Source: Dimorphilus gyrociliatus (lineage: Eukaryota; Animalia; Annelida). Taken from it: a stretch of DNA of 41,970 nucleotides. The stretch spans positions 1-41,970 of the forward strand of contig CAJFCJ010000101.1 of NCBI GenBank assembly GCA_904063045.1, given 5' to 3'. Each line of letters opens with the position of its first letter. Within the stretch, counting starts at the first letter, position 1. Made by a program: the position numbers and the translations under genes. Positions 1 through 38,093 of the stretch are shown in pieces. Under the pieces are notes generated by a model, which was given only the letters and a program-made list of their open reading frames with translations, was not told the origin of the DNA and searched no databases.

Positions 1-567
1 AACCTTTAAACAAATGTTTAAATTAAAACGGTTTATTCGCAATAATAATACTTAAGCAAGTAACAATATGAGAGTTCGATAGCAGAGTAGATAGTTTGTA
101 AAGCAGGTTGCCAAATTACCAAACTGTCTTCAATGTTGAGGAGTAGATGGATGGTTCCAGTGGAGGTTGTTTCCAGATGATTTTCCCAGGTCCTTGGGTC
201 CAGATGGAAGCTGCATGCCAAATGAGAATAATGAGGATTTATATACTTTGAGGTTTGTCTCTGACATCCAATCATCACTTTACAGTTGCCGAAATGTGTA
301 GTTCATATTTATCTTTAGTAACAGGATGTTACAAGGTTCAACATTTAGGAAGGTTAATTGAATTATAACTTGGCCACACCCTAGGCAAGTTAATTAATTA
401 TAACTTGGCCAAACCTTTATTGGTAATTAAAGATGACCTTCAGCTGACTAATCAGACTTATGTTTGGCAATGTTATAGCATTTTCTTGCGTAGGTTTTAA
501 GATGTACATGTATATGTTGCATAAAATAATAGAGTTCAAGCATGTAAAATATAACCAAAGTTGTACA
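1..567 (-). repeat. 3' LTR of element 1 (about 62 bp missing beyond the window start)
   Basis: Matches 8539-9111 except for 6 single-base indels and 2 substitutions. Begins TGTACAAC on the minus strand directly after the PPT. Confidence 0.97.
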
Positions 568-568
568 A

Positions 569-582
569 CTTCCCCCTTCTTT
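569..582 (-). other. Polypurine tract of element 1
   Basis: Minus strand reads AAAGAAGGGGGAAG, then T, then the LTR start TGTACA. Confidence 0.92.
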
Positions 583-598
583 GTGAAGATGAGTCCCT

Positions 599-925
599 TC
601 ATCTTGATTTAATGAGAATTACAGGTGGTTGTTCTTCTTCATTAGTTTGATGTTGACTAAAGCTACAACTTTGTTTCATTAGTTTTGGGTTTTCAGGAGA
701 GTTATCTGTGCTCTCACTTGGGGTAGCAATTTCTTCTCTTTGTTTTCTTCTTCCAATAATATAGTTGAAATGATGATACATACCATTGACACTACAATAC
801 TCAAACAAATATTTCTATGATAACATAAAGTGTTTTCCCAGGTTTATAGTACAACTATGGAAAAACTTTTTAATTCCAGATAAATTGGGTACAATGCCAT
901 TTTTCTCTGCAACAGTGACATGTTA
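599..925 (-). pseudogene. env: Frameshifted C-terminus of element 1 env (membrane-proximal region, TM helix, cytoplasmic tail)
   Basis: Allowing about 4 single-base deletions recovers VAEKNGIVPNLSGIKKFFHS, YYKPGKTL, LSIVVSMVCII and YIIGRRKQ. These align with element 2 FANDLGIDAALSPTQHLFSSWIRKPFKIL..YFIGRKN. Confidence 0.7.
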
Positions 926-2580
926 TCATACCTTGCCTGCTTCTGTTCCAGTGAACTGATAACTTGCTTAATTTTTGAGTGCTGGTATGCAATATCCTTC
1001 TTTACCCCATGGTGGAGTAGATCAGCTAATCTGGCAATTTCAATTTTTGGTTCAGAAAGGTGATTGTGGATATGTAACTGCATGGATTTTGCAGACACAG
1101 TGTGAAATCTGCATCCTCTTTCTGAATAATACACATACGTTTTGTCTTTCATTGGTTGGTTTCTTATAGGATTTAATGGGTTGTGAGTTGTTTTGTAGAA
1201 TAACTTGTTAGACTTACACTCATTATAGGTAATCTCTTCAGGATTGACTTGCTGTAAAACATGAGTAACTGGTTCTACTTGGAAAAGCAGGTTGTTCATG
1301 GTGACAAGTAAAAATTGAGAACATTTGTTATTCTTTTTTATCATGCTTAAGTCACAAACTACTTCTGTTGAGGCTATTGGTGAACATTGTTTAATTATAG
1401 CTAATTCTCCCATCTGACTACTGTGCATTCCCAACTCATTTGTTAACACTGTGGTCAATTGAGGATCCAAATTTGCTAGTAATGCCATCATTCTGCTTCT
1501 TTGAACAAATTGATTGCAGAGAAGACTTGACAGCTGTTGGGTAAACTTTTTTAAATTCTTAAAATTTGAATCAATACCATGTAGTAAGGTAGATGTTTGG
1601 GCAGCTTCTCTCATTTCCAATGGGAATTTGTGGTATGGGTTTTTACTTATCTTATGTTTCAGTTTTGCTTCCTTCTTCATCTGCTTTTTAGCCATTCTCA
1701 TGTGTAGAGTAAAATAAATTCCTTCATAGGTAATCTTAAATTCTCTGGCTGGTGGTCCTTTATACCATATGCCCAATGTTGGTAATACCTTCTTTTTGAT
1801 TCTTTTCTCACTGTATACATATTTTGAAATCGTGACAGATTGTCTTGTTGCCCTTGTCCAATTGACTGCTTGCAGCATTTCTTGGATATAATAGTTATCC
1901 AGCTCCCAGTAAGATGGACTAATGGGTTGTTGTAGATGATATATCACAACTTCCTTGAGTGTGCCTTTATTTCTCATTAGTTTATACTTTGTGTTTGTTT
2001 CTCTGTACCATTGGTTAAGACTTGGTAAGGGGTTGTTTCGCTTGTATAGTATAATTTGTTCTTTAACTTTATTGGGATAGTTTAATAGTCGTTTTTCTTC
2101 ATTTTTGCCAATCTTCTGATATTGTAGCAAATTGTATAGGTGTTCCTTGCTTGTTTCCTGTATTAAACTCTGTTCCTCCAGTGGTACTAGTACTTTTGTT
2201 CCAGGACCACCAATTCCATCAATAAACTTATCTTGATAAGGGATGTCCAGAATAGAATACCCTGGACAAGAATAGTGACCAGCAAATTTGATACAACTAA
2301 TTCTGTTGCTAATTTTTATCCATGGTGATTGTTGCCCAAGTGTGTAATTATTCTTGAGGTTTCTAAAGACAATAATTGCCTCTTCTGTCTCACAATAGGA
2401 CTGCCCTGGTAAACAATCTTCCAGGTAGTCCAGATTAGTTGTAATTTTCATATTAGGAGGTTGCCAATATGCTTTGCCAAACTGGATAATTGTGGTGTAT
2501 TCCAGCACCTTGGTCGTTGTTGGCCATGTGTAGGCAGCAGGAAACTGATCTTGGTGGATCCAAGTGTTTCTTTTCACCAT
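844..2580 (-). CDS. env: Env ectodomain of element 1 (class III / gB-like fusion protein), in frame with the upstream ORF across one TGA at 2602-2604
   Basis: Clearly homologous to element 2 env. Contains LLCNQF..MMALLANLDPQ..GELAIIKQCSPI, resembling the gB domain III helix and domain IV entry. The 21 nt between the stop and the ATG keep the frame. Confidence 0.8.
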   Translation of the reverse strand: MVKRNTWIHQDQFPAAYTWPTTTKVLEYTTIIQFGKAYWQPPNMKITTNLDYLEDCLPGQSYCETEEAIIVFRNLKNNYTLGQQSPWIKISNRISCIKFAGHYSCPGYSILDIPYQDKFIDGIGGPGTKVLVPLEEQSLIQETSKEHLYNLLQYQKIGKNEEKRLLNYPNKVKEQIILYKRNNPLPSLNQWYRETNTKYKLMRNKGTLKEVVIYHLQQPISPSYWELDNYYIQEMLQAVNWTRATRQSVTISKYVYSEKRIKKKVLPTLGIWYKGPPAREFKITYEGIYFTLHMRMAKKQMKKEAKLKHKISKNPYHKFPLEMREAAQTSTLLHGIDSNFKNLKKFTQQLSSLLCNQFVQRSRMMALLANLDPQLTTVLTNELGMHSSQMGELAIIKQCSPIASTEVVCDLSMIKKNNKCSQFLLVTMNNLLFQVEPVTHVLQQVNPEEITYNECKSNKLFYKTTHNPLNPIRNQPMKDKTYVYYSERGCRFHTVSAKSMQLHIHNHLSEPKIEIARLADLLHHGVKKDIAYQHSKIKQVISSLEQKQARYDNMSLLQRKMALYPIYLELKSFSIVVL

Positions 2581-2601
2581 TAAAGGTTTTCCTTGAAAAG
2601 A

Positions 2602-5424
2602 TCATTTGTCTTTTATCATCTGTCTGCATTGATCATGAGTTACTTTGATAACTGAGTTAACAATCCTCCTCTTCTTTGCTCCAAAGAAATAGTAAGTGTA
2701 AAAATTAGTTCTTAGATACACTTGACATTTTACTGCTCTTGTTTCAATTTCTTCCAAGTTCAATTCATAGATATCAGCTGTAATTGTCTTGGTTTCTTGT
2801 GATTCTATATTACAAGTTGGCTCATCTGCTAGATCAAATGCCTGGCTTGGTAGTTGGTTAGAACAAAAGTATAACGGTGGTTTAAATGTTAAGGTAATGT
2901 TTGCACTTGTAACATGGGCACCTTGGTAGGATGGTTTTGGGACTGTTATTGAGTGGATGCAGCCACAGATCACCATTACAGTCATCACTAGTGGAAGCCA
3001 CAACATCTGTTTCATGTTAGCTCTTCCTGTGTTGGCTATAGTTGAATGGTTGAAAATTTTGTGTTGTTGTTCCACTCTGATAGTTATTCCATCTTCTAAC
3101 TCTATATATTGTGGTTCCACTTCTTGTTGGGAATCTAATTGTTCAGAGATGATTTTAGTCTCATCTAAAAATATGACTGACTCATTGTCTGTGTCACTTG
3201 TATTTTCTTTCTCATCTTGGGATGAATCTACCACTATGAGGGACTCATTATCTGAATGGGTTATGTCAATAATTTCACCTTCAATAATTATTGACTCATT
3301 ATCCGAATGGGTTATATCAATAATTTCACTTTCAATAATTATTGACTCATCGTCTGAACTAGATATTTCATCTTCTCTATCAGAGATAATGTTTGCCTCT
3401 GAATCTGTATTTTGATCCAGTTCATTATTTGTTTCTGTGTCATCACTTTCAGATGAGCTTGAAGGTTCATTGAGACTGTAATTACTGTCTGTTTTGAAAG
3501 TATTGCTTGTGTCATAACCAGTATCAGAATTAGTAACTTCCATCTCTGAGTCATCACTATCTGAACTTTCTGATGAAGAGTCATGCTGTCCCATCATGGC
3601 TATAGTGACTTTGTTTAGTTGAGGTTGCCTTATTCTTTCAGCCAGGTTCCCTTTCCTTCTATCAAATTTGAGAGAACACTGTTTAGCTTCAAAATTGAGG
3701 TTTGCTCCCACAGTTTGTAGGAAATCACAACCAAGTATTATTGCTATGTCTAGATTTTCCATAACTATAAATTCTTGTTCCATACTTTCTCCAGCAAATT
3801 GGATATTCAGCTTTACGCTTCCTTTTTGCTTTAAAGCTTTCCCATCAGCTGAAGTTATAATTGGTAAGCCAATTGTTTCTTTATCCATAATTGTAACATC
3901 CATTAACTTGATTTCTTTTTCAGTAATAAAGGATCTCAATGCTCCTGTGTCACACAAGGCGATGACTTCTTGGCCTTTTTGATTCTTCAAACGGAATTGG
4001 AAGTCATTTCTTCCTTCTACCTGAGAAAGATATTGGAGGTGTGTTATTTCCTTCTCCACAAGGTGAAAGATTGTTGTTGCTTCTTTCCCTGTTTCCAACT
4101 TATTAGATTCATTGGCTAGTCTTAATCTGCTACCATGTACCAACTTGCATGTATTATCATCCATTTGTATTTCATATATCCACTTTTGATGATTGACTTT
4201 TGTTATTCGGTATGGGCCTAACCATTTTAAAGAAGGGATTTTTGTTATTGCAATTCTTGCAGCATCATTTCTTAAGAATACTTCATCATCAACCTCAAAA
4301 TATTTTGGAAGATTGAGATTTCTATTCTTTCTTTCCCTATATTGTTCTTTTGCCATGATGGATTTACAGAAGGCTGTAGCTCTTAACTGTACTAATTGCT
4401 GCTGGTGATTGAATACAAATAGTACATTTGTTTCAGGAGAGGTAGTATGCATTGTTACATCAATCAGTGTTCTTGTGCTGGTGCCAAAAAGAAGTTCCTG
4501 GGGTGGTAGTCTTGTACTTCCTACAGGTGATTGATTCAAAAATGCTTGAATCAAGGGTAGGTTTGCAACCCAGTTATGCTGATTTTCTTCCACCACTAAT
4601 TTATTGATTTCCTTCCTCACTTCTCTATTTCTTCGTTCAACTAGTCCATTGCTCTGGCTTCTATAAGCTGTTGTTTGGATTTTCTCAATACCTAATACCT
4701 TCATAAACTCTTTAAAAGCTTTACCAACAAAGTTTCTTCCTTGATCTGTCAACATTTGTTTTGGAATTCCAAAAATGGGAAAAAATCTGTTGAAAAGAAG
4801 GTTTGCAATTTCTTTACTGGTTTGCTGTTTGAGTGCATATAAAACTGTGTATCTACTGAAATGATCCACTATCACAAGTATGAATCTGTATGACTTAACC
4901 ATGGGTAAGGGTCCCATTATATCCATGGCTACCAACTCCATTGGTGATGCAGGGTGAAAGGTTTCTACCAAAGGGTATACTCTACTCCTACCATTCATTT
5001 GTTCACACAAAGTGCAATCCTTTATTGAATTCTCAATCATAATCTTTAATTTTGGGTGCCAAAAGGTCTTTGTAATTATTTGTAATGTCATTCTGGGTCC
5101 ATGGTGATTGTGAATTTTATTTTTATGGAATTTAGGGAGCAGAGTTAGCATCAAATGGTCAGGTAAAACCAGAATGTTTCTTTCTTCAAGGATAATCCAG
5201 ATCATTTCCTTGTGAACAAACATCTCCATTATGAAAGGTGTAAAAGTTCCAAAATAAGGAATAGGTAGCTGACCATCCAATGTTAAATATTCTTTAATTG
5301 ATTTTAAATTCACATCTTTTTCTTGCTCTGACTGTAAGTCAACAGAAGACAAATCAATTTTCTCTTCACTGTTATCACTGGTAGCTACAAAAGTTAACTC
5401 TGGTGTATGTTCATACTGTTCCAT
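2602..5424 (-). CDS. pol: Integrase, second aspartic protease, acidic repeat block, signal peptide and env N-terminus in one frame
   Basis: HHCC (H..HH..CTLC), DDE (MDIMGP, TDQG, VERRN), GPY motif, ALCDTGA..IILGCDFL protease, D/E/S-rich region, hydrophobic MKQMLWLPLVMTVMVICGCIHS. Confidence 0.93.
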   Translation of the reverse strand: MEQYEHTPELTFVATSDNSEEKIDLSSVDLQSEQEKDVNLKSIKEYLTLDGQLPIPYFGTFTPFIMEMFVHKEMIWIILEERNILVLPDHLMLTLLPKFHKNKIHNHHGPRMTLQIITKTFWHPKLKIMIENSIKDCTLCEQMNGRSRVYPLVETFHPASPMELVAMDIMGPLPMVKSYRFILVIVDHFSRYTVLYALKQQTSKEIANLLFNRFFPIFGIPKQMLTDQGRNFVGKAFKEFMKVLGIEKIQTTAYRSQSNGLVERRNREVRKEINKLVVEENQHNWVANLPLIQAFLNQSPVGSTRLPPQELLFGTSTRTLIDVTMHTTSPETNVLFVFNHQQQLVQLRATAFCKSIMAKEQYRERKNRNLNLPKYFEVDDEVFLRNDAARIAITKIPSLKWLGPYRITKVNHQKWIYEIQMDDNTCKLVHGSRLRLANESNKLETGKEATTIFHLVEKEITHLQYLSQVEGRNDFQFRLKNQKGQEVIALCDTGALRSFITEKEIKLMDVTIMDKETIGLPIITSADGKALKQKGSVKLNIQFAGESMEQEFIVMENLDIAIILGCDFLQTVGANLNFEAKQCSLKFDRRKGNLAERIRQPQLNKVTIAMMGQHDSSSESSDSDDSEMEVTNSDTGYDTSNTFKTDSNYSLNEPSSSSESDDTETNNELDQNTDSEANIISDREDEISSSDDESIIIESEIIDITHSDNESIIIEGEIIDITHSDNESLIVVDSSQDEKENTSDTDNESVIFLDETKIISEQLDSQQEVEPQYIELEDGITIRVEQQHKIFNHSTIANTGRANMKQMLWLPLVMTVMVICGCIHSITVPKPSYQGAHVTSANITLTFKPPLYFCSNQLPSQAFDLADEPTCNIESQETKTITADIYELNLEEIETRAVKCQVYLRTNFYTYYFFGAKKRRIVNSVIKVTHDQCRQMIKDK
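3242..3350 (-). repeat. 51-bp tandem repeat (2+ copies) encoding ESIIIE(S/G)EIIDITHSDN
   Basis: Unit gactcattatc(t/c)gaatggg..aataattatt starts at 3242 and 3293, with a partial copy at 3344. Confidence 0.95.
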
Positions 5425-5522
5425 TTTAACTGAAATAGAGGGAGAATTCTCCTTTTTGATCTTTCCATGAATTAGCTCTTCAAATGTTACTTTCCTTGGG
5501 GGTGTATATTCTTCTAATCTTG

Positions 5523-7946
5523 TTAATGCATCTGCTCTATTTTTTGTCCTGTCACATAGTTAATTGTAAATTTTAAATCCATTAAAGCCATGACCCATTT
5601 TGCTGTGCTGACATTCAATTTGTTTTGCTTAAATGTTTGTACTAGACTCTGATGGTCAGTATATAAAAAGAATGGCTTGTCTTGAAGGTAATGTAAAAAT
5701 TTCTTTACAACCCAGTAAACACCAAATGCTTCCTTTTGATAGGCTGCATATTTCATTTGATTATTGTTGAATTGTTTTGAAGCGTAGGCAATGGGTTTCA
5801 TTGTTTTCTTCCCATTCTCATCTACATAAACTTGTTCAAGAACTCCTCCTACAGCTACATTCGATGCATCTGTTGTTAAGTGAAAATCTTTAGCAAAATC
5901 AGGTAGTTGTAATACAGGAGGGTTAACTACTGCATCTCTCAACTTGAAAAATGATTGCTTGGCTTCCTCAGTCCATTGCAATTTATCCTTTTTCCCATGT
6001 AGTTTCATTAACATATACAGAGGTTTAGCTACTCTTGCAAAATCTTGTATAAATTTTCTGTAATAGCCACAAAATGCAACAAAGCTTAGTAGTGAATTTG
6101 CAAACACTGGTGGCTGTAAATTATATAATTTATCTGTCTTGGACTTATCTGTTTCAATCCCCTTTTCTGATACAATGTGTCCCAAGAATTGAACTTGTTC
6201 TTTCAAAAACACACATTTACTTAGTTTAATCTTAAAATTGTACTTTTGAATCTGTTGAAGAATGGTCTCCAATGCTTCCCAATGTTGGTCCAGCGACTTG
6301 GTAAATATTATTATGTCATCAAGGTAGTTTAGGCACAAATGCTTTACATCCTTTAGCACAAATGAATTCATTACATAACTAAAATGAGGAGGGGCATTGG
6401 TTAATCCAAAAGGCATCTTAATAAATTCAAACAAGCCAAAAGGTGTAATAAATGCTGTTTTAGACCTATCTTCTTTCTTGATGTTAATGTGGTGGTATGC
6501 ACTTGTCAAATCCATTGTAGAAAAGAATTTATTTCCTCCTCCCAAATGGTCAAAAAGATCATCTTGATTTGGCAGTGGATACTTGTTTTTAACTGTCATT
6601 TTGTTTAGTTTTCTATAATCTACACACATTCGTAGACTACCTTCCTTCTTTCTTACGAAAACAATTGGTGAAGCCCAATTGCTCTTGCTTGGTTGAATAA
6701 CTTTGCTTTTTACCAATTCAGCTATCTGTTGCTTACATTCTTCTTGTTTTTGAGGAGGCATTCTATATGGCCTTTGTCTATATGGTGTTGAACCTGGTTC
6801 AAGAGTTATTTCCAAGGGTGGTACCTCTGGATTGCCAATATCAAATCTGTCTTCTGCAATAGTTTCTTTATATTTTGCCAGAATTTGGGTAACTTTGTTC
6901 TTCATCTTGGGATTTTCTTGTTCAATTGTTGTCTGAAGGGTATGTATTTGACTCTCATTCTTTTTCATAATAAGAGGAACTGGGTAAAATCCTTTGAAAG
7001 ATAAGTGTTGTGTTCCAACAGGGTAATTCTTTTCTGTACCTGGCTGGAGTATAATCTGTCTCTTGCCAAAGTCAAGGGTAGCTCCATTTTGTTGTAGAAA
7101 GTCACACCCAATAATACATTGTTGTGTAATGATTTTGTTGATCAGAAAGCGTTGTTTAATAATCTTTCTATTAAAATAAAGTCTGAGAATGATTTCTCCA
7201 CATATCTCAATGCTATTTCCTGAAGCATCTCTAGCATTTTTCACAGTTTGTTCTGGGAAGGATGCTTTTCCTTGAACTTGTCTTAATACCTTTTTTGAAA
7301 TGAAAGATCTGTCACTACCAGAGTCTATCAAGGCATCAAACTTAAAACCAGTATTAGTTTCAAATTGTCCAATAAATGTTGAGGCATTTCGCTCAGATTG
7401 TTTGCTTTGTAACAGCTGACAAGTGGATTCGTCACTATCTGAAAAACAGAGAATATCTTGAACTTCGTCGTTTTCTGACATGCTTTCATTGTCTAATGTT
7501 TCTAATTTTTGTAGCTTAGGTTCCTCTTTCAGTATCGTCTTTGCTGGTTGATTTTTCTTATAATACCTATTTGTTGTAGTTGGTGCATACTTTTGGACTT
7601 TTTGGCTTGAAAACTTTTCTTTAGTAGCATTTTTGTTGTCAGGTACATGCTTTCTATTCCAGAAATTTGGGGTTTCTGTAGAAGCATCTTTTCTGATTAC
7701 CTGGGTCTTTTTGGTCTCTTTTCTTTGTTGAGTTTCCAATTTTGACACCATTGTGATCGGTTTTCTTTGAGTTAGTTTTAATGAAGTTTCTGCTTGCTTA
7801 GCAGCCTCATATAGTTCTGCCAATGTTTGACATTTAGGATGTAAGGTGTACACTAAATGTAGAATATCCTGTTGTAATCCTCTTTGTAAAACTTCCATCA
7901 GTTTTATTTCTTTCATAGTTGCAAGCAATTGTGGTTCCATTGGGCT
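5523..7946 (-). CDS. pol: Gag C-terminus, protease 1, reverse transcriptase and RNase H of element 1
   Basis: LQRGL..TLAELYEAAKQAE gag helix, DALIDSGS..IIGCDFL, WASP, YLDDII, TTDAS, YTDH. One extra A in the run near 5543 would restore NRADAL and fuse this ORF to the integrase frame. Confidence 0.95.
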   Translation of the reverse strand, partial: SPMEPQLLATMKEIKLMEVLQRGLQQDILHLVYTLHPKCQTLAELYEAAKQAETSLKLTQRKPITMVSKLETQQRKETKKTQVIRKDASTETPNFWNRKHVPDNKNATKEKFSSQKVQKYAPTTTNRYYKKNQPAKTILKEEPKLQKLETLDNESMSENDEVQDILCFSDSDESTCQLLQSKQSERNASTFIGQFETNTGFKFDALIDSGSDRSFISKKVLRQVQGKASFPEQTVKNARDASGNSIEICGEIILRLYFNRKIIKQRFLINKIITQQCIIGCDFLQQNGATLDFGKRQIILQPGTEKNYPVGTQHLSFKGFYPVPLIMKKNESQIHTLQTTIEQENPKMKNKVTQILAKYKETIAEDRFDIGNPEVPPLEITLEPGSTPYRQRPYRMPPQKQEECKQQIAELVKSKVIQPSKSNWASPIVFVRKKEGSLRMCVDYRKLNKMTVKNKYPLPNQDDLFDHLGGGNKFFSTMDLTSAYHHINIKKEDRSKTAFITPFGLFEFIKMPFGLTNAPPHFSYVMNSFVLKDVKHLCLNYLDDIIIFTKSLDQHWEALETILQQIQKYNFKIKLSKCVFLKEQVQFLGHIVSEKGIETDKSKTDKLYNLQPPVFANSLLSFVAFCGYYRKFIQDFARVAKPLYMLMKLHGKKDKLQWTEEAKQSFFKLRDAVVNPPVLQLPDFAKDFHLTTDASNVAVGGVLEQVYVDENGKKTMKPIAYASKQFNNNQMKYAAYQKEAFGVYWVVKKFLHYLQDKPFFLYTDHQSLVQTFKQNKLNVSTAKWVMALMDLKFTINYVTGQKIEQMH

Positions 7947-8416
7947 TTCCATATTTCCTCCACAGTAGGCTCTCCATCCAGAGCCAACACCAAATCCTTT
8001 GCAGGACCAGTTAAATAATCTAAAAGATTTGCTTTCACAACATCTTCTCCTATCCAACCATAAGCATAACATGCCTGATTAAAGTCTTCTTTGAATTTTG
8101 AACACTCCTTGCTTCCATCATACAACTTGAGAATAGTTCTTTGAGGGCGGTCCCAAGCAGCCCTTAATGCTTGAATTACTGTTGTGATATCAACATTTGG
8201 GTTCTGTGCTGGGTGATGTGTTCCATCTCCATGATCTGTTGGAATTGTGATTCGATTTCTTTTCATTTCACTCACCAATCTGTCATAGTCTTCAATTAGT
8301 CTTTGTTGCCTTTCTGACATTCCTGCTGGCTGAATTGTAATTGTTGGAGTTGCTGGGGTTGAAGGGTTAGAGTCTGTAACTGCCCCAGTGGCGTTTCCAT
8401 TTCCTTCTTCTGCCAT
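7913..8416 (-). CDS. gag: Gag N-terminus of element 1 (frame break near 7945)
   Basis: First ATG after the PBS (MAEEG). YDGS..FKEDFNQACYAYGW..LLDYLTGPA resembles a retrotransposon capsid domain. No CCHC knuckle seen. Confidence 0.8.
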   Translation of the reverse strand: MAEEGNGNATGAVTDSNPSTPATPTITIQPAGMSERQQRLIEDYDRLVSEMKRNRITIPTDHGDGTHHPAQNPNVDITTVIQALRAAWDRPQRTILKLYDGSKECSKFKEDFNQACYAYGWIGEDVVKANLLDYLTGPAKDLVLALDGEPTVEEIWKAQWNHNCLQL

Positions 8417-8454: not shown

Positions 8455-8472
8455 ATCCTGTCGACTGCGCCA
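8455..8472 (-). other. Primer binding site, tRNA-Ser type
   Basis: TGGCGCAGTCGACAGGAT, 4 nt after the LTR end. Close to the tRNA-Ser PBS of Drosophila 17.6/297-type elements (TGGCGCAGTCGGTAGGAT). Confidence 0.9.
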
Positions 8473-8476
8473 AATT

Positions 8477-9111
8477 TGTACTGCTCTTGCTGGCAAAATC
8501 TATGCGTTTGCAAGTTATAACAATACTGGTTCTACTCGAACCTTTAAACAAATGTTTAAATTAAAACGGTTTATTCGCAATAATAATACTTAAGCAAGTA
8601 ACAATATGAGAGTTCGATAGCAGAGTAGATAGTTTGTAAAAGCAGGTTGCCAAATTACCAAACTGTCTTCTAATGTTGAGGAGTAGATGGATGGTTCCAG
8701 TGGAGGTTGTTTCCAGATGATTTTCCCAGGTCCTTGGGTCCAGATGGAAGCTGCATGCCAAATGAGAATAATGAGAATTTATATACTTTGAGGTTTGTCT
8801 CTGACATCCAATCATCACTTTACAGTTGCCGAAATGTGTAGTTCATATTTATCTTTAGTAACAGGATGTTACAAGGTTCAACATTTAGGAAGGTTAATTG
8901 AATTATAACTTGGCCACACCCTAGGCAAGTTAATTAAATTATAACTTGGCCAAACCTTTGTTGGTAATTAAAGATGAGCCTTCAAGCTGACTAATCAGAC
9001 TTATGTTTGGCCAATGTTATAGCATTTTCTTGCGTAGGTTTTAAGATGTACATGTATATGTTGCATAAAATAATAGAGTTCAAGCATGTAAAATATAACC
9101 AAAGTTGTACA
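8477..9111 (-). repeat. 5' LTR of element 1 (635 bp)
   Basis: Termini TGTAC..GTACA, TATA-like AGTATATAAA, AATAAA near the 3' end, and a duplicated aattataacttggcca motif in U3. Confidence 0.97.
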
Positions 9112-17010: not shown

Positions 17011-17164
17011 TGATTCTAATGATATATAATATGTCTATATTCGGCCAAGCATTTCCCCCTGAAAAGTTAAAAAATGTGATTAGCTTACCAAGGATAATTG
17101 GCAATTGCAAGGTGTTCACTCTATGGTAACGAATGTAAGACTAGAGAAGTATCAGGTATATAAA
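17011..17164 (-). promoter_or_regulatory. Putative promoter and non-coding first exon of ORF B
   Basis: TTTATATA, 30 nt, CCATAGAG, GTAAG donor at 17088, then the 32-bp motif. Spacing matches the ORF A copy. Confidence 0.55.
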
Positions 17165-25458: not shown

Positions 25459-26271
25459 TGTACACTACATTCGTCAGCTATATTCTACAATAGAGAAGTA
25501 GTATTGAACCAGTATTGTACTATGCAGATAGCACTGATAAAGATAAGCAGTAGTGACCTAGTTTCGCATAGGGCAGTGCATACACATTATGCAGTAATAA
25601 AACCTATTGAATTATATAAAGAATATTTGCTATTTGCAACCTAGCATTAATATTACAATTTATTAATCCATAAATTTATGATTTTGAACTAAAACTAGTT
25701 CAATTAATTATCAATTATGCTTAAATTCTAAGTTTAGATTATATTCACTATTCAACAGTATTGTATACACAATACTGTTCTTTTTAACATGCATTAATCA
25801 GATATACTTCCTCCTTATATGCTGATGCTAAATTTACTAACTCAATCAATTGAATATCATTATTAAGGTAGAATATAAAGACAGTCAAATATACAATCTA
25901 CATGTTTTCTTGATTGTTGGACTTGTGCTACTAAAATTGTTACATCTTATGCAACTCTCCAACCTTCGAAATTCAACTATTATTTAGAAGAGGAAAACAA
26001 TAAAAACATGACCATATTTAGAACTTTTCTTTGTCTTCAAATGTTACTTTTGTTTTTGTGAACATGGAAATTTGTCAACTATCAACCCTTAAAAGAGTAT
26101 ATAAACCCTACGAAATTAACAGTTGATAGTTCAGTTTTCTAACTGTCAGCTAGTTGTTTAAACTAGCTTGTTTAGAACTAGAAGCTCATTTTACTCAATA
26201 CATATTCTTTGGACGAAATACTGGTGTTTTCTTAATCAATTTCTACCAAAATTGCCTTTGTTAGACTATTT
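25459..26271 (+). repeat. Truncated 5' LTR of element 2 (last 121 bp, PBS and gag start deleted)
   Basis: Matches 33062-33871, then jumps into mid-gag sequence. No PBS follows. Confidence 0.95.
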
Positions 26272-26694
26272 AAAGGAAAAATTGTTAATCATGTGGAAAA
26301 AGATGGAAAGATTAACTCAGTTAATCAGTATATTAAATTGGCAAAAAGAGCAGAAATATTTTTTGATAATGCAAGAAAAGAAAGCGAAAATGAATTCAAA
26401 CAGTACAAAAGGAGATTTGACAACAATCAGAGTAACTCAAATCAAAATGAACATACATTTAAACCTTTTTCTCAAAATAGATTTCAACAACAAAGAAATG
26501 GAAATGCAGGAAATAATGAAAAAGGCAGCTTTAACAGACTAATACATGTTGGACCTGATGAACCTAATGAAACTGAAATTTCTAAAGGAAGAATGGCAAT
26601 ATTTAATCTCAAAGAAGAGAAAATCGCACATTTTAAGTGTACTTCTTTGGTAAAAGGCAGAAAAGATTTTGCAATTTCGAATGAAAAATCATAA
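26272..26694 (+). pseudogene. gag: Gag C-terminal remnant of element 2
   Basis: IVNHVEKDGKINSVNQYIKLAKRAE parallels element 1 ILHLVYTLHPKCQTLAELYEAAKQAE. It is followed by an N/Q-rich stretch with no CCHC knuckle. Confidence 0.65.
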
Positions 26695-27778
26695 TGGAAG
26701 AGAGGTTATTGCTTTATGTGATTCAGGAGCACTTTTGTCATTTATTACAGAAAAAGAAATCAGGTTAATGGATTCTAAATTCATCAAGAAAGAAACTACT
26801 GGCTTACCAATCATCACTTCAGCAGAGGGAAATGCTTTAAAGACAAAAGGAAAAACAAAACTGAATATTCAATTTAATGGAAGAATTATGGAACAAGAAT
26901 TCTTTATTATGGAAAAACTAGATATGGCTATAATACTTGGTTGTGATTTCTTAGAAAATGCTGGAGCTCTTATTGATTTTGCAACAAAACAAGTTTCTCT
27001 TCCATTCTTTATCAGAAAAGGACAACCAGTTAGAAAGTTTTTGCAATATAACGAAAATCACCAAACAAAATTTGGAAAACAAGGCAGTGTAAAAAAAGTA
27101 ACTGTTGGAATGATGGGACAGTATTTTGAAGATTCTGACACTCCATCTGAAGTTTTTGATACTCCATCTGAAGTTTCAGATAGTGTGGACTCAGAAATGG
27201 AAGTTACTGATCCAGATACTGGCTATGATACAAGCAACACTCATGGTTCAAGCATAGTTTATGAGGGATTCAATGGTTTTGATTCAAATAGCAATTATGG
27301 CACAGATGAAAGTTCCAGTACTTCTGAAAATTATGATACAGAAACAAGTATTGAATCAGATCACAGCCCAGACTCAGATTTGGATATAATCAATGGTACA
27401 AGCTCATCTGAAGATGAAATTAGTGATTCAACTGATTCTGATCATGGTTCAATGATTGTTATAGACTCATCTGAGGAAGAGCTTGATAACATAACTGAGC
27501 CTGATAATGATTCAATGATTGTTATAGACTCATCTGAAGAAGAGACCAGTAACACAATTGAGTCTGACAATGATTCCATAACGGTTATAGACTCATCTGA
27601 TGAAGAGACTGGAAATATACCTAAGTCTGACAATGACTCAGTTATTCTCATAAATTCCTCTGAAGAAGAAACTGAAGACTTGGCTATGGAAATGGAAATG
27701 AAACCACAATATAGAATTAGAAGATGGAATAACTATCAAAGTGGAAAAAGAACAAAAGAAAAATCCAGTAACACCTGA
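26669..27778 (+). CDS. pol: Aspartic protease plus acidic repeat block of element 2
   Basis: ALCDSGA..IILGCDFL. Frame breaks near 26670 and 27712 are both read through in frame in the element 1 homologue (DFQFR; PQYIELEDGITI). Confidence 0.9.
   Translation: MQFRMKNHNGREVIALCDSGALLSFITEKEIRLMDSKFIKKETTGLPIITSAEGNALKTKGKTKLNIQFNGRIMEQEFFIMEKLDMAIILGCDFLENAGALIDFATKQVSLPFFIRKGQPVRKFLQYNENHQTKFGKQGSVKKVTVGMMGQYFEDSDTPSEVFDTPSEVSDSVDSEMEVTDPDTGYDTSNTHGSSIVYEGFNGFDSNSNYGTDESSSTSENYDTETSIESDHSPDSDLDIINGTSSSEDEISDSTDSDHGSMIVIDSSEEELDNITEPDNDSMIVIDSSEEETSNTIESDNDSITVIDSSDEETGNIPKSDNDSVILINSSEEETEDLAMEMEMKPQYRIRRWNNYQSGKRTKEKSSNT
27449..27672 (+). repeat. 63-bp tandem repeat (3.5 copies) encoding (M/I/V)(I/T)(V/L)I(D/N)SS(E/D)EE units
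   Basis: Units start at 27449, 27512, 27575 and 27638. A separate 21-bp duplication (DTPSEV) lies at 27137-27176. Confidence 0.95.
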
Positions 27779-30700
27779 AATAGAAGAATTACAGTTGGAA
27801 AGTATTGAATTTGAACATTTGTCTAATCAAAATGTACACAATATTAATTCAAATACACTAGAAATTGACAATTATTTACATGTGTCCAAAAATAATCTTG
27901 ACAAGAACAGAGAAGAATTAAAAGAAATGATGAAGAATTATGAAGATATTATTGCTACAAATCAGAATGACATTGGTTCACCAGATGTTCCACCAATGGC
28001 AATTGAATTATTGGAAGATATAAAGCCTTTCAAACAAAGACCATACAGATTGCCACCCAACAAACAGCAGGAATGCAGGGATCAATTAAATGGATTATTG
28101 GAAAATGGTCTAATTAGAGCAAGCAAAAGCCAATGGGCTTCACCCATTGTTTTTGTGAAAAAGAAAGAAGGAACATTAAGAATGTGTGTGGATTACAGAA
28201 AACTTAACAAGCAATCAAAAAAGAATTGTTATCCAATTCCACATCAGGAAGATTTATTTGATAAGCTTGGAGGAGGCCACAAATATTTTTCTATATTGGA
28301 TTTAACAAGTGCATTTCATCATATTCCAATTAAAGAAGAAGATAAGGAGAAAACTGCTTTTATTACACCATTTGGTTTATTTGAATTCAACCGCATGCCA
28401 TTTGGTTTGGCTAATGCACCTTCACACTTCAGCTATATCATGGCAAATTTTGTTATTAATGGATTGGAAAACTTCTGCATTAATTATATGGATGATATTA
28501 TAGTTTTTACCAAAACATTGGAAGAACACTTTGTAGCTCTACAGAAACTTATGGAAAGAATCAAGGAAAAAGACTTCAGAATTAAACTGAGCAAATGTGC
28601 ATTCTTACAAGAATCAGTTCAATTCCTTGGTCATAGAATTACACAGAATGGTATTGAAACTGATCCTGAAAAGATTCAGAAAATAAAAGATGCCAAATTA
28701 CCTATGTTTGCAAATACTCTGTTGAGTTTTGTGGCATTTTGTGGTTATTATAGAAGATTTGTTAAAGATTTTGCAAAAATCACAAAACCTTTGAGAGAAT
28801 TATTAAAAGTACACCAAAAGACAGAAAAACTGAAATGGACAAAAAAAGCAGAGGAAGCTTATGAAACACTAAGGAATGCAATGACAGAGCCCCCAATCCT
28901 TCAACTGCCAGACTTTACTAAATCATTCTATTTAACAACAGATGCTTCTAATTATGCAGTTGGTGCAGTTCTAGAACAAGAATGGGAAGAAGATGGAAAG
29001 AAAATAAGAAAACCAATTTCTTTTGCTTCCAAGCTCCTAATCAATACACAACTAAGATATGCAGCTTATCAAAAAGAGGCTTTTGCAGTATATTGGGCAG
29101 TACAAAAATTCTCCCATTATCTACAGTATAAGAAATTTTTTCTCTACACTGATCACCAAAATTTGGTACAAACATTTGTACAAAACAAACTGAATACAAG
29201 TACTGTTAAAAGGGTGATGGCACTTATGGATATGGATTTTGAAATAATATACATACCAGGAAGAACTAATAGAGCAGACTGGATATCAAGAATTGGTGAA
29301 ACTGATGAAGTAATTGATTTTCGTAATTTACTTAAGGAAAGATTAAATGAAGAAAAACAAAATGGCAATACAGTTCCCCAATTAGCAGAAAGAAAGGATA
29401 TGCTTAAATGCTTTTATATTGATACAGAGGACTTAGAAGAATTAGATGATTGTTTAGATGACAATCTAGACAATGATTATGATGAAGACATAACTGAAAT
29501 CCAAGCCCAGATTATGAAACTAAAAATCACACCAGTTGAAATAAACTTCTATAGAGAACAAGTATTAGATACTCCACTAATGAAAGTTGTAGACAAATTG
29601 GAAGGAGAAAACATTGATAATGGGTCTTTGAATGAATATGGAAACTTTATTGAATCTATGTTTGTAAAAGAAGACCTTGAATGGTATCTAAATGGCTGTC
29701 AACCACTACTTGTAATTCCACTATCAACTCTAACAAACTTACTTGGACAAATTCATCAACATCAACTATTTGAGCACTATGGTGTAGACATAACAATTCA
29801 CACTTTGGAGCAAGCTTTCTGGCACCCAAAGCTAAAGAAAACAATTAAAGATCACATAAAGAGTTGTGAATTTTGTGAGCAATTAAGAGCACCAGGCAAC
29901 AAACATCTGTTGGTTGAAACACCTCACCCAACTTTACCAATGCAAAGAATAGCTATGGACATAATGGGACCTCTGACTGGACATGATTCTTACAAGTATA
30001 TACTTGTCATTATAGACCACATGTCCAGATTTACCAACATATTCCCTCTAAAAACTCAAACAGCTGAGGAAATTTCTAAACATTTGTTTTTCAACTATTT
30101 CCCAATATTTGGTATCCCAGAAGAAATTCTCACAGATCAAGGAAGGAATTTTCTTGGGGAAATCTTTACAGAAATGGTGACATCAATGGGAATACGAAAA
30201 ATTAAAACAACAGCATTCCATAGCCAAAGTAATGGAATGGTAGAAAGAAAGAATTTGGAAATTTGTAGAGCACTACATAAACATGTAGTTATGGAACAAT
30301 TAACAGATTGGACAAGACAGTTACCATTAATTCAGACATGTTTAAATCAAATTCCAGTTGGAAGCACTGGCAAAACCCCACATGAAATATTATTTGGATT
30401 GAAGAATAGAAATGTTTTAGACCTGTTAATGGAAGTTCCAAGATTAGAACCAACAACAAAATTCTTATTTGATAGAAAACATGAACTTGAAGAAATTAGA
30501 GCAACAGCACTTTGCAAATCTGTTCTAAAAAAGAAGGAATATAGAGATAGAGTTAATAAAGCTATTACAAGAAAACCTCCAACTTACAAAATTGGTGATT
30601 GGGTACACAAAAGAAATGAAAACATTGGTCAAGGAATGAACAGAATAAATACAAGCAAATGGAGTGGACCATATCTTGTAACTGCTACAGATACTACAAA

Positions 30701-32303
30701 ATGTTTGTATAAATTACAAATATTGGCAGATAAAAGAAAATTCTACCATGCTAGTAGACTAAGACTAACTAACAAACAAGCTATAACAGTTAACACAGTG
30801 ACAGTAAGGAAACACCAAACAAATGGTGTAATGCTGCCTATCAGAGGATCAATAATTTATACACTGTTAGCAATATGCTGTTTAAACTTGGTCCAAGCAA
30901 ATGTATCCATAACAAAAGCAAACATAACTGTAAGAATGCTACCATCAGTACAGTTTTGTCAAGGACAACAAGTACACCAATCATTTGATTTAGCAGATGA
31001 ACCAGTATGTACCTTTGAAACTAAACAAATGATCAAAATTGTAGCTAACATCTATGAAATTAAAGCTGACAATTTGGCAATTCAAGCTGTCAAGTGTTTA
31101 GTGAAAAGAAGAATCAATTTCTACACTCATTACTTTTTTGGTGCAAAGAAACACAGAATTGAAAAACAAACACTTGCCTTAAGTGAAAAACAATGCAGAA
31201 CAATGCTATACACACACAAAACCTTAAATGGACAAAACCTAATTGAAAAAGGCAAACTTCTTATGTATAATGAAAACAAAGGACCAAATTACAAATGGCC
31301 AAGAACCACAGTGGTGGAAGAATTTACAACAATCCTTCAAATTGGCAAGGCTTATTGGAATCCAAGTCAAGATAAAATAACCACAAATTTGGAATATTTA
31401 GAAGACTGTTCTATTAAACAAAAATTTTGTAGAACTTTGGATTCAATCATTATATTTAATCCAGAAAAAGGCCAAAGTCTTCTAGGCCATGTTTCACCAT
31501 GGAAAATAGTTTCCCATAATGTGGAATGTCTAAAACTTGGAGGATATTTTTCCTGCCCCAACTATGCAATAATGGATTTACCTTACCAAGACAGATATAT
31601 CAAAGGATATGGTGGTCCTGGTACCAGAGTATTGGTACCCCAGAAAGAATATGACTTACTTAGAACTGATCTTACAAATTCTAATTATGCTGACAATAAA
31701 ATAATAGAGGATACAAAATACAAGATCATTTCAAATAAAGAAGTTAATAGATTGGAGAAATATATTGGAAAGAAATCATCACTAAGAAAGGCCAATGTCA
31801 CAGAAATACAAGATATTTTAACATATAATGATTGGTATAGAGATGGTGACAAAACCTACCATATGCTGATAAAAAATCATGCAACACCATTAGTGAGGAC
31901 TTGGTTTGTCAAAGAAATTATTTCTCCAGACATCTGGGATATTCACAACAAATACATACTAAAAATGCTGAAAACAACAAAGCTAAAACCTGCCAGACTA
32001 GTAAGATCACAAGATTTTGAATTGGACAAAAAACCAGTTACTTTCAACCCACTCCCAAACATGAACATTTGGTATCAAAGCCCAAAAGATACACAATTTC
32101 AAATTCATACAGAAAATGGCAAATATACACTTTTACAAAGAAAACCAATAAATCACAAATGGAAGAGGAAACAATTAGAAAACATAGAGATTCCAGAATC
32201 ACACCAAATAAATATAAAAGATGCTATAAGAACAGCTGCACTACTAAACAATATTGACAAAAATTTTCAAAATTTACAAACAGTTTTTAAACAAGTTTCA
32301 TAA
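27741..32303 (+). CDS. pol: RT, RNase H, integrase, signal peptide and env ectodomain of element 2 in one frame
   Basis: RMCVDYRKLN, YMDDII, TTDAS, H..H..CEFC, MDIMGP/TDQG/VERKN, then MLPIRGSIIYTLLAICCLNLVQA and Cys-containing env. Confidence 0.95.
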   Translation: MEKEQKKNPVTPEIEELQLESIEFEHLSNQNVHNINSNTLEIDNYLHVSKNNLDKNREELKEMMKNYEDIIATNQNDIGSPDVPPMAIELLEDIKPFKQRPYRLPPNKQQECRDQLNGLLENGLIRASKSQWASPIVFVKKKEGTLRMCVDYRKLNKQSKKNCYPIPHQEDLFDKLGGGHKYFSILDLTSAFHHIPIKEEDKEKTAFITPFGLFEFNRMPFGLANAPSHFSYIMANFVINGLENFCINYMDDIIVFTKTLEEHFVALQKLMERIKEKDFRIKLSKCAFLQESVQFLGHRITQNGIETDPEKIQKIKDAKLPMFANTLLSFVAFCGYYRRFVKDFAKITKPLRELLKVHQKTEKLKWTKKAEEAYETLRNAMTEPPILQLPDFTKSFYLTTDASNYAVGAVLEQEWEEDGKKIRKPISFASKLLINTQLRYAAYQKEAFAVYWAVQKFSHYLQYKKFFLYTDHQNLVQTFVQNKLNTSTVKRVMALMDMDFEIIYIPGRTNRADWISRIGETDEVIDFRNLLKERLNEEKQNGNTVPQLAERKDMLKCFYIDTEDLEELDDCLDDNLDNDYDEDITEIQAQIMKLKITPVEINFYREQVLDTPLMKVVDKLEGENIDNGSLNEYGNFIESMFVKEDLEWYLNGCQPLLVIPLSTLTNLLGQIHQHQLFEHYGVDITIHTLEQAFWHPKLKKTIKDHIKSCEFCEQLRAPGNKHLLVETPHPTLPMQRIAMDIMGPLTGHDSYKYILVIIDHMSRFTNIFPLKTQTAEEISKHLFFNYFPIFGIPEEILTDQGRNFLGEIFTEMVTSMGIRKIKTTAFHSQSNGMVERKNLEICRALHKHVVMEQLTDWTRQLPLIQTCLNQIPVGSTGKTPHEILFGLKNRNVLDLLMEVPRLEPTTKFLFDRKHELEEIRATALCKSVLKKKEYRDRVNKAITRKPPTYKIGDWVHKRNENIGQGMNRINTSKWSGPYLVTATDTTKCLYKLQILADKRKFYHASRLRLTNKQAITVNTVTVRKHQTNGVMLPIRGSIIYTLLAICCLNLVQANVSITKANITVRMLPSVQFCQGQQVHQSFDLADEPVCTFETKQMIKIVANIYEIKADNLAIQAVKCLVKRRINFYTHYFFGAKKHRIEKQTLALSEKQCRTMLYTHKTLNGQNLIEKGKLLMYNENKGPNYKWPRTTVVEEFTTILQIGKAYWNPSQDKITTNLEYLEDCSIKQKFCRTLDSIIIFNPEKGQSLLGHVSPWKIVSHNVECLKLGGYFSCPNYAIMDLPYQDRYIKGYGGPGTRVLVPQKEYDLLRTDLTNSNYADNKIIEDTKYKIISNKEVNRLEKYIGKKSSLRKANVTEIQDILTYNDWYRDGDKTYHMLIKNHATPLVRTWFVKEIISPDIWDIHNKYILKMLKTTKLKPARLVRSQDFELDKKPVTFNPLPNMNIWYQSPKDTQFQIHTENGKYTLLQRKPINHKWKRKQLENIEIPESHQINIKDAIRTAALLNNIDKNFQNLQTVFKQVS

Positions 32304-32873
32304 CTTTTATGCAAAGAATTTATCATGAGAAACAAGATGATAGCCCTACTTACACCACTATCACCTCAACTACCAACAATACTTGGATATGGTACATGTG
32401 ACCAAACTCAGCATCTCTTCAAGATCAAGAAAAATCCTTTGGATGCAGAACAAAATCAATATGCCATACATTCTGGCAAGAAGACATTTATCTATTATAC
32501 AAGGAAAGGATGCAGGTTCCAAACAGCAGCAGCACAATCAATCAGAATGAAAATCAACAGTCAAATTGAAGAACCAAAACTAGAAGTTGTCAGACTCACA
32601 GAATTATTACAACTAGGTATAAAAGAAGATGTGGGCAAGAAACATTATCAGATACAACAAGTTTTGGAATACATACAGGATACTTTGACTAAGCATAGAG
32701 AGCATATTAACTTTGCAAATGATTTAGGAATTGATGCAGCCTTGTCACCAACACAACATCTATTTTCTTCATGGATAAGAAAACCTTTCAAAATACTAAT
32801 AGACACACTTCTGCCAATTATACTCTTGATTGGAATTGGATTCTTCATCTACTTTATTGGAAGAAAAAACTGA
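32304..32873 (+). CDS. env: Env C-terminus with TM helix, same frame as the upstream ORF after an in-frame TAA
   Basis: LLCKEFIMRNKMIALL aligns with element 1 LLCNQFVQRSRMMALL. TM helix LLPIILLIGIGFFIYFIG followed by RKN. Confidence 0.85.
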   Translation, partial: LLCKEFIMRNKMIALLTPLSPQLPTILGYGTCDQTQHLFKIKKNPLDAEQNQYAIHSGKKTFIYYTRKGCRFQTAAAQSIRMKINSQIEEPKLEVVRLTELLQLGIKEDVGKKHYQIQQVLEYIQDTLTKHREHINFANDLGIDAALSPTQHLFSSWIRKPFKILIDTLLPIILLIGIGFFIYFIGRKN

Positions 32874-33045
32874 AAAGAGTTCAATTTACCAGACTGTCTA
32901 AACTACTGACAAAAACAAAAAGATTACCTTCAGCTCCAACAGCCTGAATCAGAAGAAATAGAACTGCAAAATTATCCTATGTTCAGAAAAAGTGGTGATA
33001 ACATAATTGTCACAAGTCCTAGACCTTTCGTGGAAGCAAGGTCTT

Positions 33046-33057
33046 AAAGGAGTGGGA
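33046..33057 (+). other. Polypurine tract of element 2
   Basis: AAAGGAGTGGGA, 4 nt before the 3' LTR. Confidence 0.85.
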
Positions 33058-33061
33058 TGTT

Positions 33062-33992
33062 TGTACACATACATTCGTCAGCTATATTCTACAATAGAGA
33101 AGTAGTATTGAAACCAGCATTTACTATGCAGATAGCACTGATAAATAAGCAGTAGTGACCTAGTTTCGCATAGGCAGTGCATACACATTATGCAGTAATA
33201 AAAACCTATTGAATTATATAAAGAATATTTGCTATTTGCAACCTAGCAATAATATTACAATTTATTAATCCATAAATTTATGATTTCGAACTAAAACTAG
33301 TTCAATTAATTATCAATTATGCTTAAATTCTAAGTTTAGATTATATTCACTATTCAACAGTATTGTATACACAATACTTTCTTTTTAACATGCATTAATC
33401 AGATATACTCCTCCTTATATGCTGATGCTAAATTTACTAACTCAATCAATTGAATATCATTATTAAGGTAGAATATAAAAACGGTCAAATATACAATCTA
33501 CATGTTTTCTTGATTGTTGGACTTGTGCTACTAAAATTGTTACATCTTATGCAACTCTCCAACCTTCGAAATTCAACTATTATTTAGAAGAGGAAAACAA
33601 TAAAAACATGACCATATTTACAACTTTTCTTTGTCTTCAAATGTTACTTTTGTTTTTGTGAACATTGAAATTTGTGAACTATCAACCCTTAAAAGAGTAT
33701 ATAAACCCTATGAAATTAACAGTTGATAGTTCAGTTTTCTAAATATCAGCTAGTTGTGTAAACTAGCTTGTTTAGAACTAGAAGCTCATTTTACTCAATA
33801 CATATTCTTTGGACGAAATACTGGTGTTTTGTTAATCAATTTCTACCGAAATTGCCTTTGTTAGACTATTTGTGGATGAACTTTAAAGGTTCTATTTGAA
33901 CCAGTACTTTGGCAAGTTGGTAAATGATTGGAAAGGACGATTACAGTTGTGATGAACCAGAAATTCCTACAATTACAATACAACAAAGTACA
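33062..33992 (+). repeat. 3' LTR of element 2 (931 bp)
   Basis: TGTAC..GTACA termini, GAGTATATAAACCC TATA-like motif, followed by the TSD. Confidence 0.97.
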
Positions 33993-35440: not shown

Positions 35441-35542
35441 ATTTAAAATTGTAACATTTATTTATTATAAAGAGCTTTATCTATACGTTATATTAAAATA
35501 GTCATATCCATTTAAAGTTAACACATTCCTTTTGGATAGAAG

Positions 35543-37956: not shown

Positions 37957-38074
37957 TAACTTTTAATTCTCAACATTAATTCATTAATTTTTGAAAGCTA
38001 CACATCTACTTCCTTGGCTCTGGCTTTGTCATTCTCATAAACCAAAATAACATTCATTGAAGTAGCATTGTTGG

Positions 38075-38089
38075 CTGTCAACTGCTCCA
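38075..38089 (-). other. Degenerate tRNA-Ser-type PBS of element 3
   Basis: TGGAGCAGTTGACAG, 4 nt after the LTR end. Two mismatches to the element 1 PBS over 15 nt. Confidence 0.75.
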
Positions 38090-38093
38090 TATT

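Follow-up and report, generated by a model that had tools for sequence, protein, structure and literature searches.

A second retropepsin between the integrase and Env of a Ty3/Gypsy element from Dimorphilus gyrociliatus, probably captured from a sister family

Retroviruses and long terminal repeat (LTR) elements are taught as having one protease, which acts at maturation. Ty3/gypsy elements carrying env of the gB type were described across animals as 'ancient errantiviruses' by Chary and Hayashi (PMC13524379); in the available part of that paper, Pol is drawn with one protease and recombination is given as infrequent. Extra open reading frames (ORFs) and a dUTPase, with the canonical order protease (PR)-reverse transcriptase (RT)-RNase H (RH)-integrase (IN), are present in rotifer elements in the accessible sections of PMC5408684, and an additional RNase H is present in Tat LTR retrotransposons in those of PMC10508981. 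No description of a second, extra or tandem protease in gypsy elements was found in the literature covered, most subscription papers, Repbase entries and Sacco 2022 lying outside this coverage. Here we describe such a protease, PR2, in element 1, a Ty3/Gypsy LTR retrotransposon that encodes a class III (gB-type) Env and lies on the minus strand of a 41,970-nucleotide stretch of D. gyrociliatus DNA (assembly GCA_904063045.1, contig CAJFCJ010000101.1, positions 1 to 41,970), hereafter the window. A sister family in the same window, element 2, represents a natural control, with the same Env, no PR2 and a donor-type protease in the normal place.

An in-frame block of 1.05 kb, consisting of PR2 and an acidic linker, is located between the integrase and the Env signal peptide of element 1. 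The block belongs to the minus-strand ORF 5559-2602 (985 codons from stop to stop; 940 counted from the first Met), in which the Pfam domains Integrase_H2C2 (aa 133-189) and rve (aa 205-300) are followed by a retropepsin at aa 529-631 (RVP_2, 29.7 bits, cut-off 20.3; RVP, 23.2 bits, cut-off 20.7) and by a signal-like hydrophobic segment (aa 855-873) with its own Met at aa 849, between PR2 and Env. Since the window copy is broken at 2602, this ORF includes only the start of Env. The element's own protease, PR1, is encoded ahead of RT in ORF 8078-5523. A previous sequence-only reading of the window had noted PR1 (DSG) before RT and an intact PR2 (DTG, IILGCDFL) after the integrase, with both the IN-PR2 and linker-Env junctions in frame in one 940-aa ORF; Pfam and the motifs confirm the two proteases, and ORF 5559-2602 the continuous frame. 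PR2 keeps DTG (3951-3943), IILGCDFL, the flap region and the hydrophobic-G-x-D motif. Its AlphaFold model (mean predicted local distance difference test, pLDDT, 74) shows a retropepsin fold matching Ddi1 and retroviral proteases; the best PDB matches are Ddi1 domains (template modelling (TM) scores 0.67-0.76), a common top fold match for Ty3/Gypsy proteases. By motifs, Pfam and predicted fold, PR2 is a retropepsin, and the retained residues make it reasonably likely to be catalytically active.

The stretch is present in five of the six listed runs, from two studies, with no RNA data set among the listed holders. Four runs were compared with element 1: X1, X2 and X3, which belong to one study and may be the source of the window, and X5, from the other study and with another species label. 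Both junctions lie on single contigs in X1 (2009-4762, 4 differences), X2 (1655-4884, 3 differences) and X3 (1590-7167, 8 differences); in X5 the IN-PR2 junction lies on a 3128-base contig and the linker-Env junction on a second one. Contig depth, which is not equivalent to copy number, is even across IN, PR2, linker and Env in X1-X3. A further X5 contig, record 25, about 85% alike, crosses the linker-Env junction with more than 100 bases on either side, which dates the capture before that split of about 15%; the 5' junction of this copy falls outside the matches listed. The sequence-only reading had raised the possibility that the block is confined to one copy or misassembled. A misassembly or nested insertion in the window copy only, in line with the many small errors or private breaks in the window assembly, is refuted by the presence of both junctions in contigs of all four runs and both studies and by the even depth in X1-X3; the captured block has neither LTRs nor a target duplication, and since its DNA diverges by 25-35% from the element 2 next to it, a local chimera is excluded. 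This explanation is extremely improbable, and the second protease is very probably a real feature of the family.

In X1 and X3 element 1 is covered at a depth of 15-30 and element 2 at 7-16, with almost no depth on the flank 15500-25460, and 159 of the 2891 X1 contigs fall on element 1, the pattern expected of shallow runs if only repeated DNA assembles. Contig cover on the element without its flank suggests several element-1 copies more than 98% identical, and the form with PR2 is likely the family form. The window copy carries four breaks, in gag, at the RH/IN border, at 2602 and towards the end of env, where hydrophobic pieces of the frameshifted Env C-terminal region are found in other frames. 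At these breaks the run contigs differ from the window, those of X2 and X3 being longer in gag; the breaks are thus peculiar to the window copy or its assembly, and an uninterrupted reading frame is probable for the family. Among the 29 listed run differences that were classified, 18 are silent and 11 are not, with only one (silent) inside PR2, numbers too small for a ratio of nonsynonymous to synonymous rates (dN/dS). Run X6 was compared with element 2 only, with 82 C>T and 29 G>A among 118 listed changes; none of the element-1 words were present in it, probably because X6 is bisulfite-converted.

PR2 and the element-2 PR are identical at 76 of 112 residues and at 75% of the DNA, compared with 37/109 residues for PR1 and the element-2 PR and 31/108 for PR1 and PR2. 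The identity had previously been counted as 76 of 110; the abrupt stop of the homology at ELEDGITI(R/K)VE, also claimed then, is confirmed. DNA homology covers approximately 4110-3060 versus 26560-27757 and starts about 35 codons ahead of the protease. The tree of 52 protease domains pairs PR2 with the element-2 PR (support 100/99) and places PR1 next to the pair (96/89); together with the identities, this upholds the earlier statement that PR2 is far closer to the element-2 PR than PR1 is. Between elements 1 and 2, silent sites are unsaturated in PR2 (proportion of silent differences, pS, 0.48) and saturated in RT, RH and the IN core (0.78-0.80); four-fold sites are unchanged in 35 of 57 codons of the block versus 35 of 102 in RT, RH and IN, and small Env samples are also high (9/13 and 15/31). 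The unsaturated silent sites and the more frequent matches at four-fold sites indicate that the ancestor shared by the block and element 2 is younger than that of the Pol core.

These comparisons make it likely that the block was captured from the element-2 lineage by recombination; movement between families, as proposed in the sequence-only reading, is the simplest origin by identities and the protease tree, and a single capture is the most economical history. LTR elements have an established route for such exchange, namely switching of templates within a particle that both RNAs share. Two such switches between co-packaged RNAs would have set the Gag end, PR and linker of the donor behind the integrase, co-packaging being suggested by the same LTR ends (TGTAC..GTACA in both elements) and similar primer binding sites (PBS). 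In the previous argument for co-packaging the shared ends stand; the shared PBS needs qualification, since the element-2 copy at 25459 lost the LTR end, PBS and 5' gag, and a similar site is found only behind the LTR of the other copy at 38094 (13 of the first 15 bases match). The PBS of element 1 agrees at 11 of 12 bases with the tRNA-Ser primer end given in the PMC13524379 supplement.

In the opposite direction, PR2 and the linker would have arisen behind IN by an old duplication and would only later have taken the place of the normal element-2 protease; this alternative bears on origin alone and could go together with any function. The tree (PR1,(PR2, element-2 PR)) suits both directions, and extra proteases shift between positions in relatives; the reverse history, however, requires two or more events where a capture requires one, the branch of the element-2 PR is short, with a distance to PR1 typical for pairs of that RT distance, and the block starts in sequence that continues Gag in element 2, which makes this history distinctly improbable. 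As a capture from the element-2 lineage, the PR2 block would be a clean case of Pol module exchange between families with RTs only 63% identical.

The best RT matches are Ty3/Gypsy-type polyproteins, and the RT tree was built without a Bel/Pao or Copia outgroup. From the best 120 long RT relatives, 65 single-element rows were kept, and 55 gene models joining several elements each (P0014-P0063 and five more) were dropped; the IN-PR ending or continuation in P0021 and P0063 is an artefact of such joining. Twelve of the 65 carry the gB-type family PF24664 in a single ORF with the order Gag-Env-PR-RT-IN. Elements with the order Gag-Env-Pol were reportedly described by Sacco et al. in 2022. A downstream retropepsin in related RT-RH-IN polyproteins, a recurrence that the sequence-only reading had missed, was found in 5 of these 12 env-bearing polyproteins (P0068, P0073, P0080, P0098 and P0118, unannotated, from ENA/JGI contigs) versus 0 of the 53 other single-element rows, a contrast not equal to five independent events, the 12 relatives being one clade. 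The 53 include four of the env type (P0066, P0087, P0072, P0077), none with an extra protease, and P0131, with a tandem protease before RT.

In the five polyproteins the catalytic Asp is located 47-76 residues past the IN end motif, compared with 58 in element 1, and in four of them the post-IN protease is followed by a signal-like segment. Another extra protease lies just behind the Env anchor in 6 of the 12, and D[TS]G is kept in 10 of 11 extra protease domains. In the RT tree the 12 relatives form a clade (support 99) with elements 1 and 2 outside, and in the protease tree their extra proteases do not group with PR2; at least two origins of the IN-protease-signal peptide arrangement are accordingly likely. 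The post-IN protease is a gain that is accessory rather than required. Word-based protein searches with the PR2-linker-Env stretch gave no match among longer or near-length proteins. Related-locus scans of metagenome contigs (471 pattern matches) and viral contigs (167) gave none confirmed; a protease scan gave three loci at 26-29%, with the protease before RT in L001 and L002 and only a short RT match behind it in L003.

The single-ORF Gag-Env-Pol polyproteins P0069, P0073, P0080, P0085, P0098 and P0118 contain up to three retropepsins, and most of them encode a second, small membrane protein after the integrase; ankyrin repeats and a weak ubiquitin-like match were also found in P0085. P0066 and P0087, likewise Gag-Env-Pol, carry an Env of the window kind (E 3.6e-10 and 6.2e-12) missed by Pfam, and this Env type is found both before Pol, in these two, and after it, in the window elements.

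Fusion of Env to Gag-Pol represents a topology problem, the enzymes being tied to the membrane of the endoplasmic reticulum (ER). A signal peptide enters the ER, and signal peptidase cuts the downstream protein free in the lumen. The sequence-only reading had assigned to PR2 the release of Env from Pol; this role is not retained, because the signal-like segment aa 855-873 lies between them and signal peptidase would release Env. PR2 is N-terminal to this segment, would be cytoplasmic if the chain enters the ER and need not free Env. In the polyprotein topology, the Env signal peptide would enter the ER and Env would be freed in the lumen, while Gag-Pol-PR2 would remain tied to the membrane on the cytoplasmic side; the tether would concentrate PR2, favouring early dimerisation and a cut near the integrase end, which would free Pol without waiting for activation of PR1 in the particle, with the long acidic linker acting as a spacer. 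The extra proteases of the other clade are also located at cytoplasm-membrane borders. From the sequence, the chance that releasing Pol from the membrane anchor is the main role of PR2 can be put at nearly even; the complete reading, namely that PR2 and the linker were captured and kept because PR2 would cut Gag-Pol off its anchor, falls just short of an even chance. A second protease at that border in two lineages points to a repeated solution and offers a direct test of polyprotein processing.

Selection on PR2 had previously been deduced from an open frame despite about 30% divergence. The motifs are indeed intact; divergence alone is no proof that selection acted once PR2 had been captured, as the donor could have been related to element 2 and the capture may postdate most of the changes. 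Selection on PR2 itself is suggested, as is a function. It is rather unlikely that the block is a passenger, which rode along in frame while only an open frame reaching Env, or a spacer, was kept and PR2 slowly decayed. Against this, the catalytic and C-terminal motifs are intact after a silent divergence of about 0.8-1.0 per site, the junction persists in the copy diverged by about 15%, and the same placement is found in another RT clade, with D[TS]G in nearly all extra domains. A passenger would fit the absence of a post-IN protease from element 2 and most of the 12 relatives, and the changes of PR2 relative to the element-2 PR, which are not significantly rarer at conserved columns (10/37 versus 26/74 elsewhere; p 0.52). 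Judged at the 36 columns in which the two differ, the fit of PR2 to the family profile is no worse overall, being poorer in 19 and better in 17, and a relative-rate test of PR2 and the element-2 PR is not significant (8 versus 3, p 0.23).

Several observations weigh against a retained function in anchor release, and some of them favour a passenger. The pairwise dN/dS of PR2 and the element-2 PR, 0.28 (0.15-0.53), speaks for retention, but the value pools both branches and the time before capture. The PR2 branch of the protease tree is longer, 0.41 versus 0.10, and in one pair of relatives the post-IN proteases are identical at 74/103 residues versus 101/106 for the normal ones; relaxed selection also fits this faster change. 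A post-IN protease is absent from 7 of the 12 relatives, including P0064, the sister of P0068, which has one; as element 2 also lacks it, PR1 is evidently sufficient. In P0073 the post-IN protease is not followed by a membrane segment, the relatives' single clade limits the weight of their contrast, and of the diverged copy just the linker-Env junction is among the matches listed. Env has its own Met, which may allow a separate mRNA, the tether being then perhaps a minor product. Finally, the main X5 contig is without 60 bases inside PR2 (aa 546-566; window 3864-3923), and if X5 is DNA, PR2 is dead in an abundant lineage.

The three shortest listed X5 skips (1183-1241, 3864-3923 and 8793-8858, plus strand; 59-66 bases) all have canonical GT..AG ends on one strand, antisense to element 1. 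Canonical intron ends are expected for 0.45% of random skips of this size, and X5 probably represents RNA in which antisense transcripts of element 1 are spliced, a reading that would remove the skip from the case for a passenger. A host silencing locus or an antisense promoter would be expected to give such antisense RNA, which is probably abundant.

A role directed at the host is also to be considered, in which PR2 and the acidic repeats with their motifs resembling SUMO-interacting motifs (SIM) would bind SUMO-modified host silencing factors and cut them in a manner similar to Ddi1 or Wss1, or the tail would steer integrase to SUMO-rich chromatin. By a SIM pattern of our own, built from a consensus, element 2 has four SIM-like repeats (0 of 5000 shuffles reach four) and element 1 has two, against a background of 0.023 per 100 aa in the 120 polyproteins. 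The repeats of element 2 are, however, tandem copies of one unit, which the shuffle overstates, and the count in element 1 is not above shuffles (860/5000). In favour of such a role, the higher rate of change in accessory proteases is compatible with conflict, the X5 contigs suggest that antisense RNA across element 1 is spliced, and Ddi1 domains are the best matches by fold; against it, no acidic array of this kind accompanies the extra proteases of relatives, with 7-21% Asp and Glu (D+E) in the next 70 residues. A host-directed role is considered improbable. More broadly, accessory retropepsins may represent a recurring selected module of single-chain Gag/Pol/membrane-protein Ty3/Gypsy elements, located at cytoplasm-membrane borders, acting at the ER before assembly and gained at least twice, here by capture from a sister family with a SIM-like arm perhaps aimed at SUMO-marked host silencing proteins; this generalisation is offered tentatively, with the odds somewhat against it.

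The features of both elements are collected in the table. In element 1 the Pol order PR-RT-RH-IN, LTRs of the TG..CA type, a PBS and a polypurine tract are all present; the LTR pair differs by 2 substitutions and 6 gap columns over the 567 bases of the 3' LTR inside the window. Pfam gave no match for the broken ORF in the gag position.

Table. Features of elements 1 and 2 in the window
Feature	Position	Strand	Basis
Element 1 5' LTR (TGTAC...GTACA)	8477..9111	-	LTR comparison
Element 1 primer binding site, tRNA-Ser type	8455..8472	-	Match to Ser primer end
Element 1 Gag region, broken near 7943 in the window copy	7371..8416	-	ORF position
PR1, own retropepsin of element 1 (DSG), before RT	7035..7370	-	Pfam, motif
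Element 1 reverse transcriptase and RNase H	5560..6773	-	Pfam RVT_1, RT_RNaseH; 63% identity to element 2
Element 1 integrase (H2C2, core, C-terminal domain ending HGSRLRL)	4111..5165	-	Pfam, alignment
5' end of the putatively captured block, similar to the element-2 Gag/PR linker	4003..4110	-	15/36 residues identical; DNA alignment
PR2, second retropepsin, DTG at 3951-3943	3667..4002	-	Pfam, alignment, tree, model
Acidic Ser/Thr-rich linker, short repeats, 29% D+E, two SIM-like motifs (strict pattern)	3060..3666	-	92/185 residues identical to element 2
Met and predicted Env signal peptide	2941..3015	-	Top 19-residue hydropathy of the ORF, 2.07 at aa 855
Env, predicted fusion protein of class III (gB-type), with breaks at 2602 and near 767-918	760..2940	-	40% and 30% identical to element-2 Env
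Element 1 polypurine tract	568..581	-	Sequence inspection
Element 1 3' LTR, cut by the window start (target site outside view)	1..567	-	LTR comparison
Element 2: LTR (cut), gag end, PR, acidic linker, RT, RH, IN, signal peptide, Env, LTR	25459..33992	+	ORFs, Pfam, alignment
Element-2 homologue of the captured block (PR and acidic linker), ahead of RT	26560..27757	+	DNA/protein alignment

Element 2 is flanked by a 5-bp target-site duplication, and 23 residues, without any protease, connect its IN to the Env signal peptide. The model of its Env (aa 1-303; mean pLDDT 76) matches herpes gB (E 1.5e-6) and viral G proteins (to E 1.3e-10), with TM-scores of only 0.3-0.45 versus herpesvirus gB and mononegaviral G proteins; as a homologue of this modelled protein, the element-1 Env is assigned to the class III fusogens. 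A HMMER search with the element-2 Env gave eight proteins, all unnamed Env-only pieces. At 26271 an internal deletion of element 2 fuses the 5' LTR to mid-gag, and an X1 contig runs from this point 549 bases further upstream into sequence missing from the window. A second, rearranged piece of element 2 with a full LTR is present at 37374-39028 (minus strand), including a 587-base fragment (end of IN, start of Env) whose identity to the first copy is 100%. At the LTR start (25462-26047) an X3 depth peak of 4580 was found, compared with 66 in the next bin, together with Tn5-type adapter ends; this perhaps reflects open chromatin at the LTR.

Elsewhere in the window there are two long minus-strand ORFs, 11181-9001 (726 aa), with element 1 inserted in its 3' end, and 15338-13812 (508 aa); the central part of both is repetitive and charged, and both have the motif ISD(S/C)SF towards their end. 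Pfam gave no match for either, Atlas gave only a weak GDSL-like lead (0.76), and BLASTP similarity between the two was not significant. The regions 21300-25460 and 34000-35450 contain dense short direct and inverted repeats, 60-93% alike and resembling miniature inverted-repeat transposable elements (MITE-like), and cysteine-rich reading frames, perhaps exons of a host gene, were found at 40552-41969 (plus strand).

Ddi1-type enzymes carry ubiquitin-related domains. Ddi1-type retropepsins and PR2 are alike in fold and in a possible modifier-binding arm; the former are cellular enzymes, whereas PR2 is plainly derived from a retroelement protease. Tat elements, according to the accessible sections of PMC10508981, are similar to element 1 in having an extra copy of a Pol enzyme in a Ty3/Gypsy polyprotein, gained more than once; there the additional RNase H lies beside the native domain, which is degrading, whereas the two proteases of element 1 are far apart and keep their motifs. 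The HSV/gB-type (HSV, herpes simplex virus) errantiviruses, as presented in the available part of PMC13524379, share with element 1 the order Gag-Pol-Env, LTRs, a PBS of the tRNA-Ser type, a signal peptide before a class III fusogen and, likely, several near-identical copies. The Gag-Env-Pol order of the P0068-type polyproteins is that of nematode, bryozoan and flatworm elements in the same part of that paper. These Gag-Env-Pol relatives resemble element 1 in a post-IN retropepsin that is patchy among relatives and changes faster than the normal protease, and differ from it in having Env before Pol, another RT clade and no acidic array. Element 1, with the order Pol-Env and an RT outside their clade, carries a fusogen behind its extra protease, whereas in these relatives the extra protease is followed by a small membrane protein that is not a fusogen.

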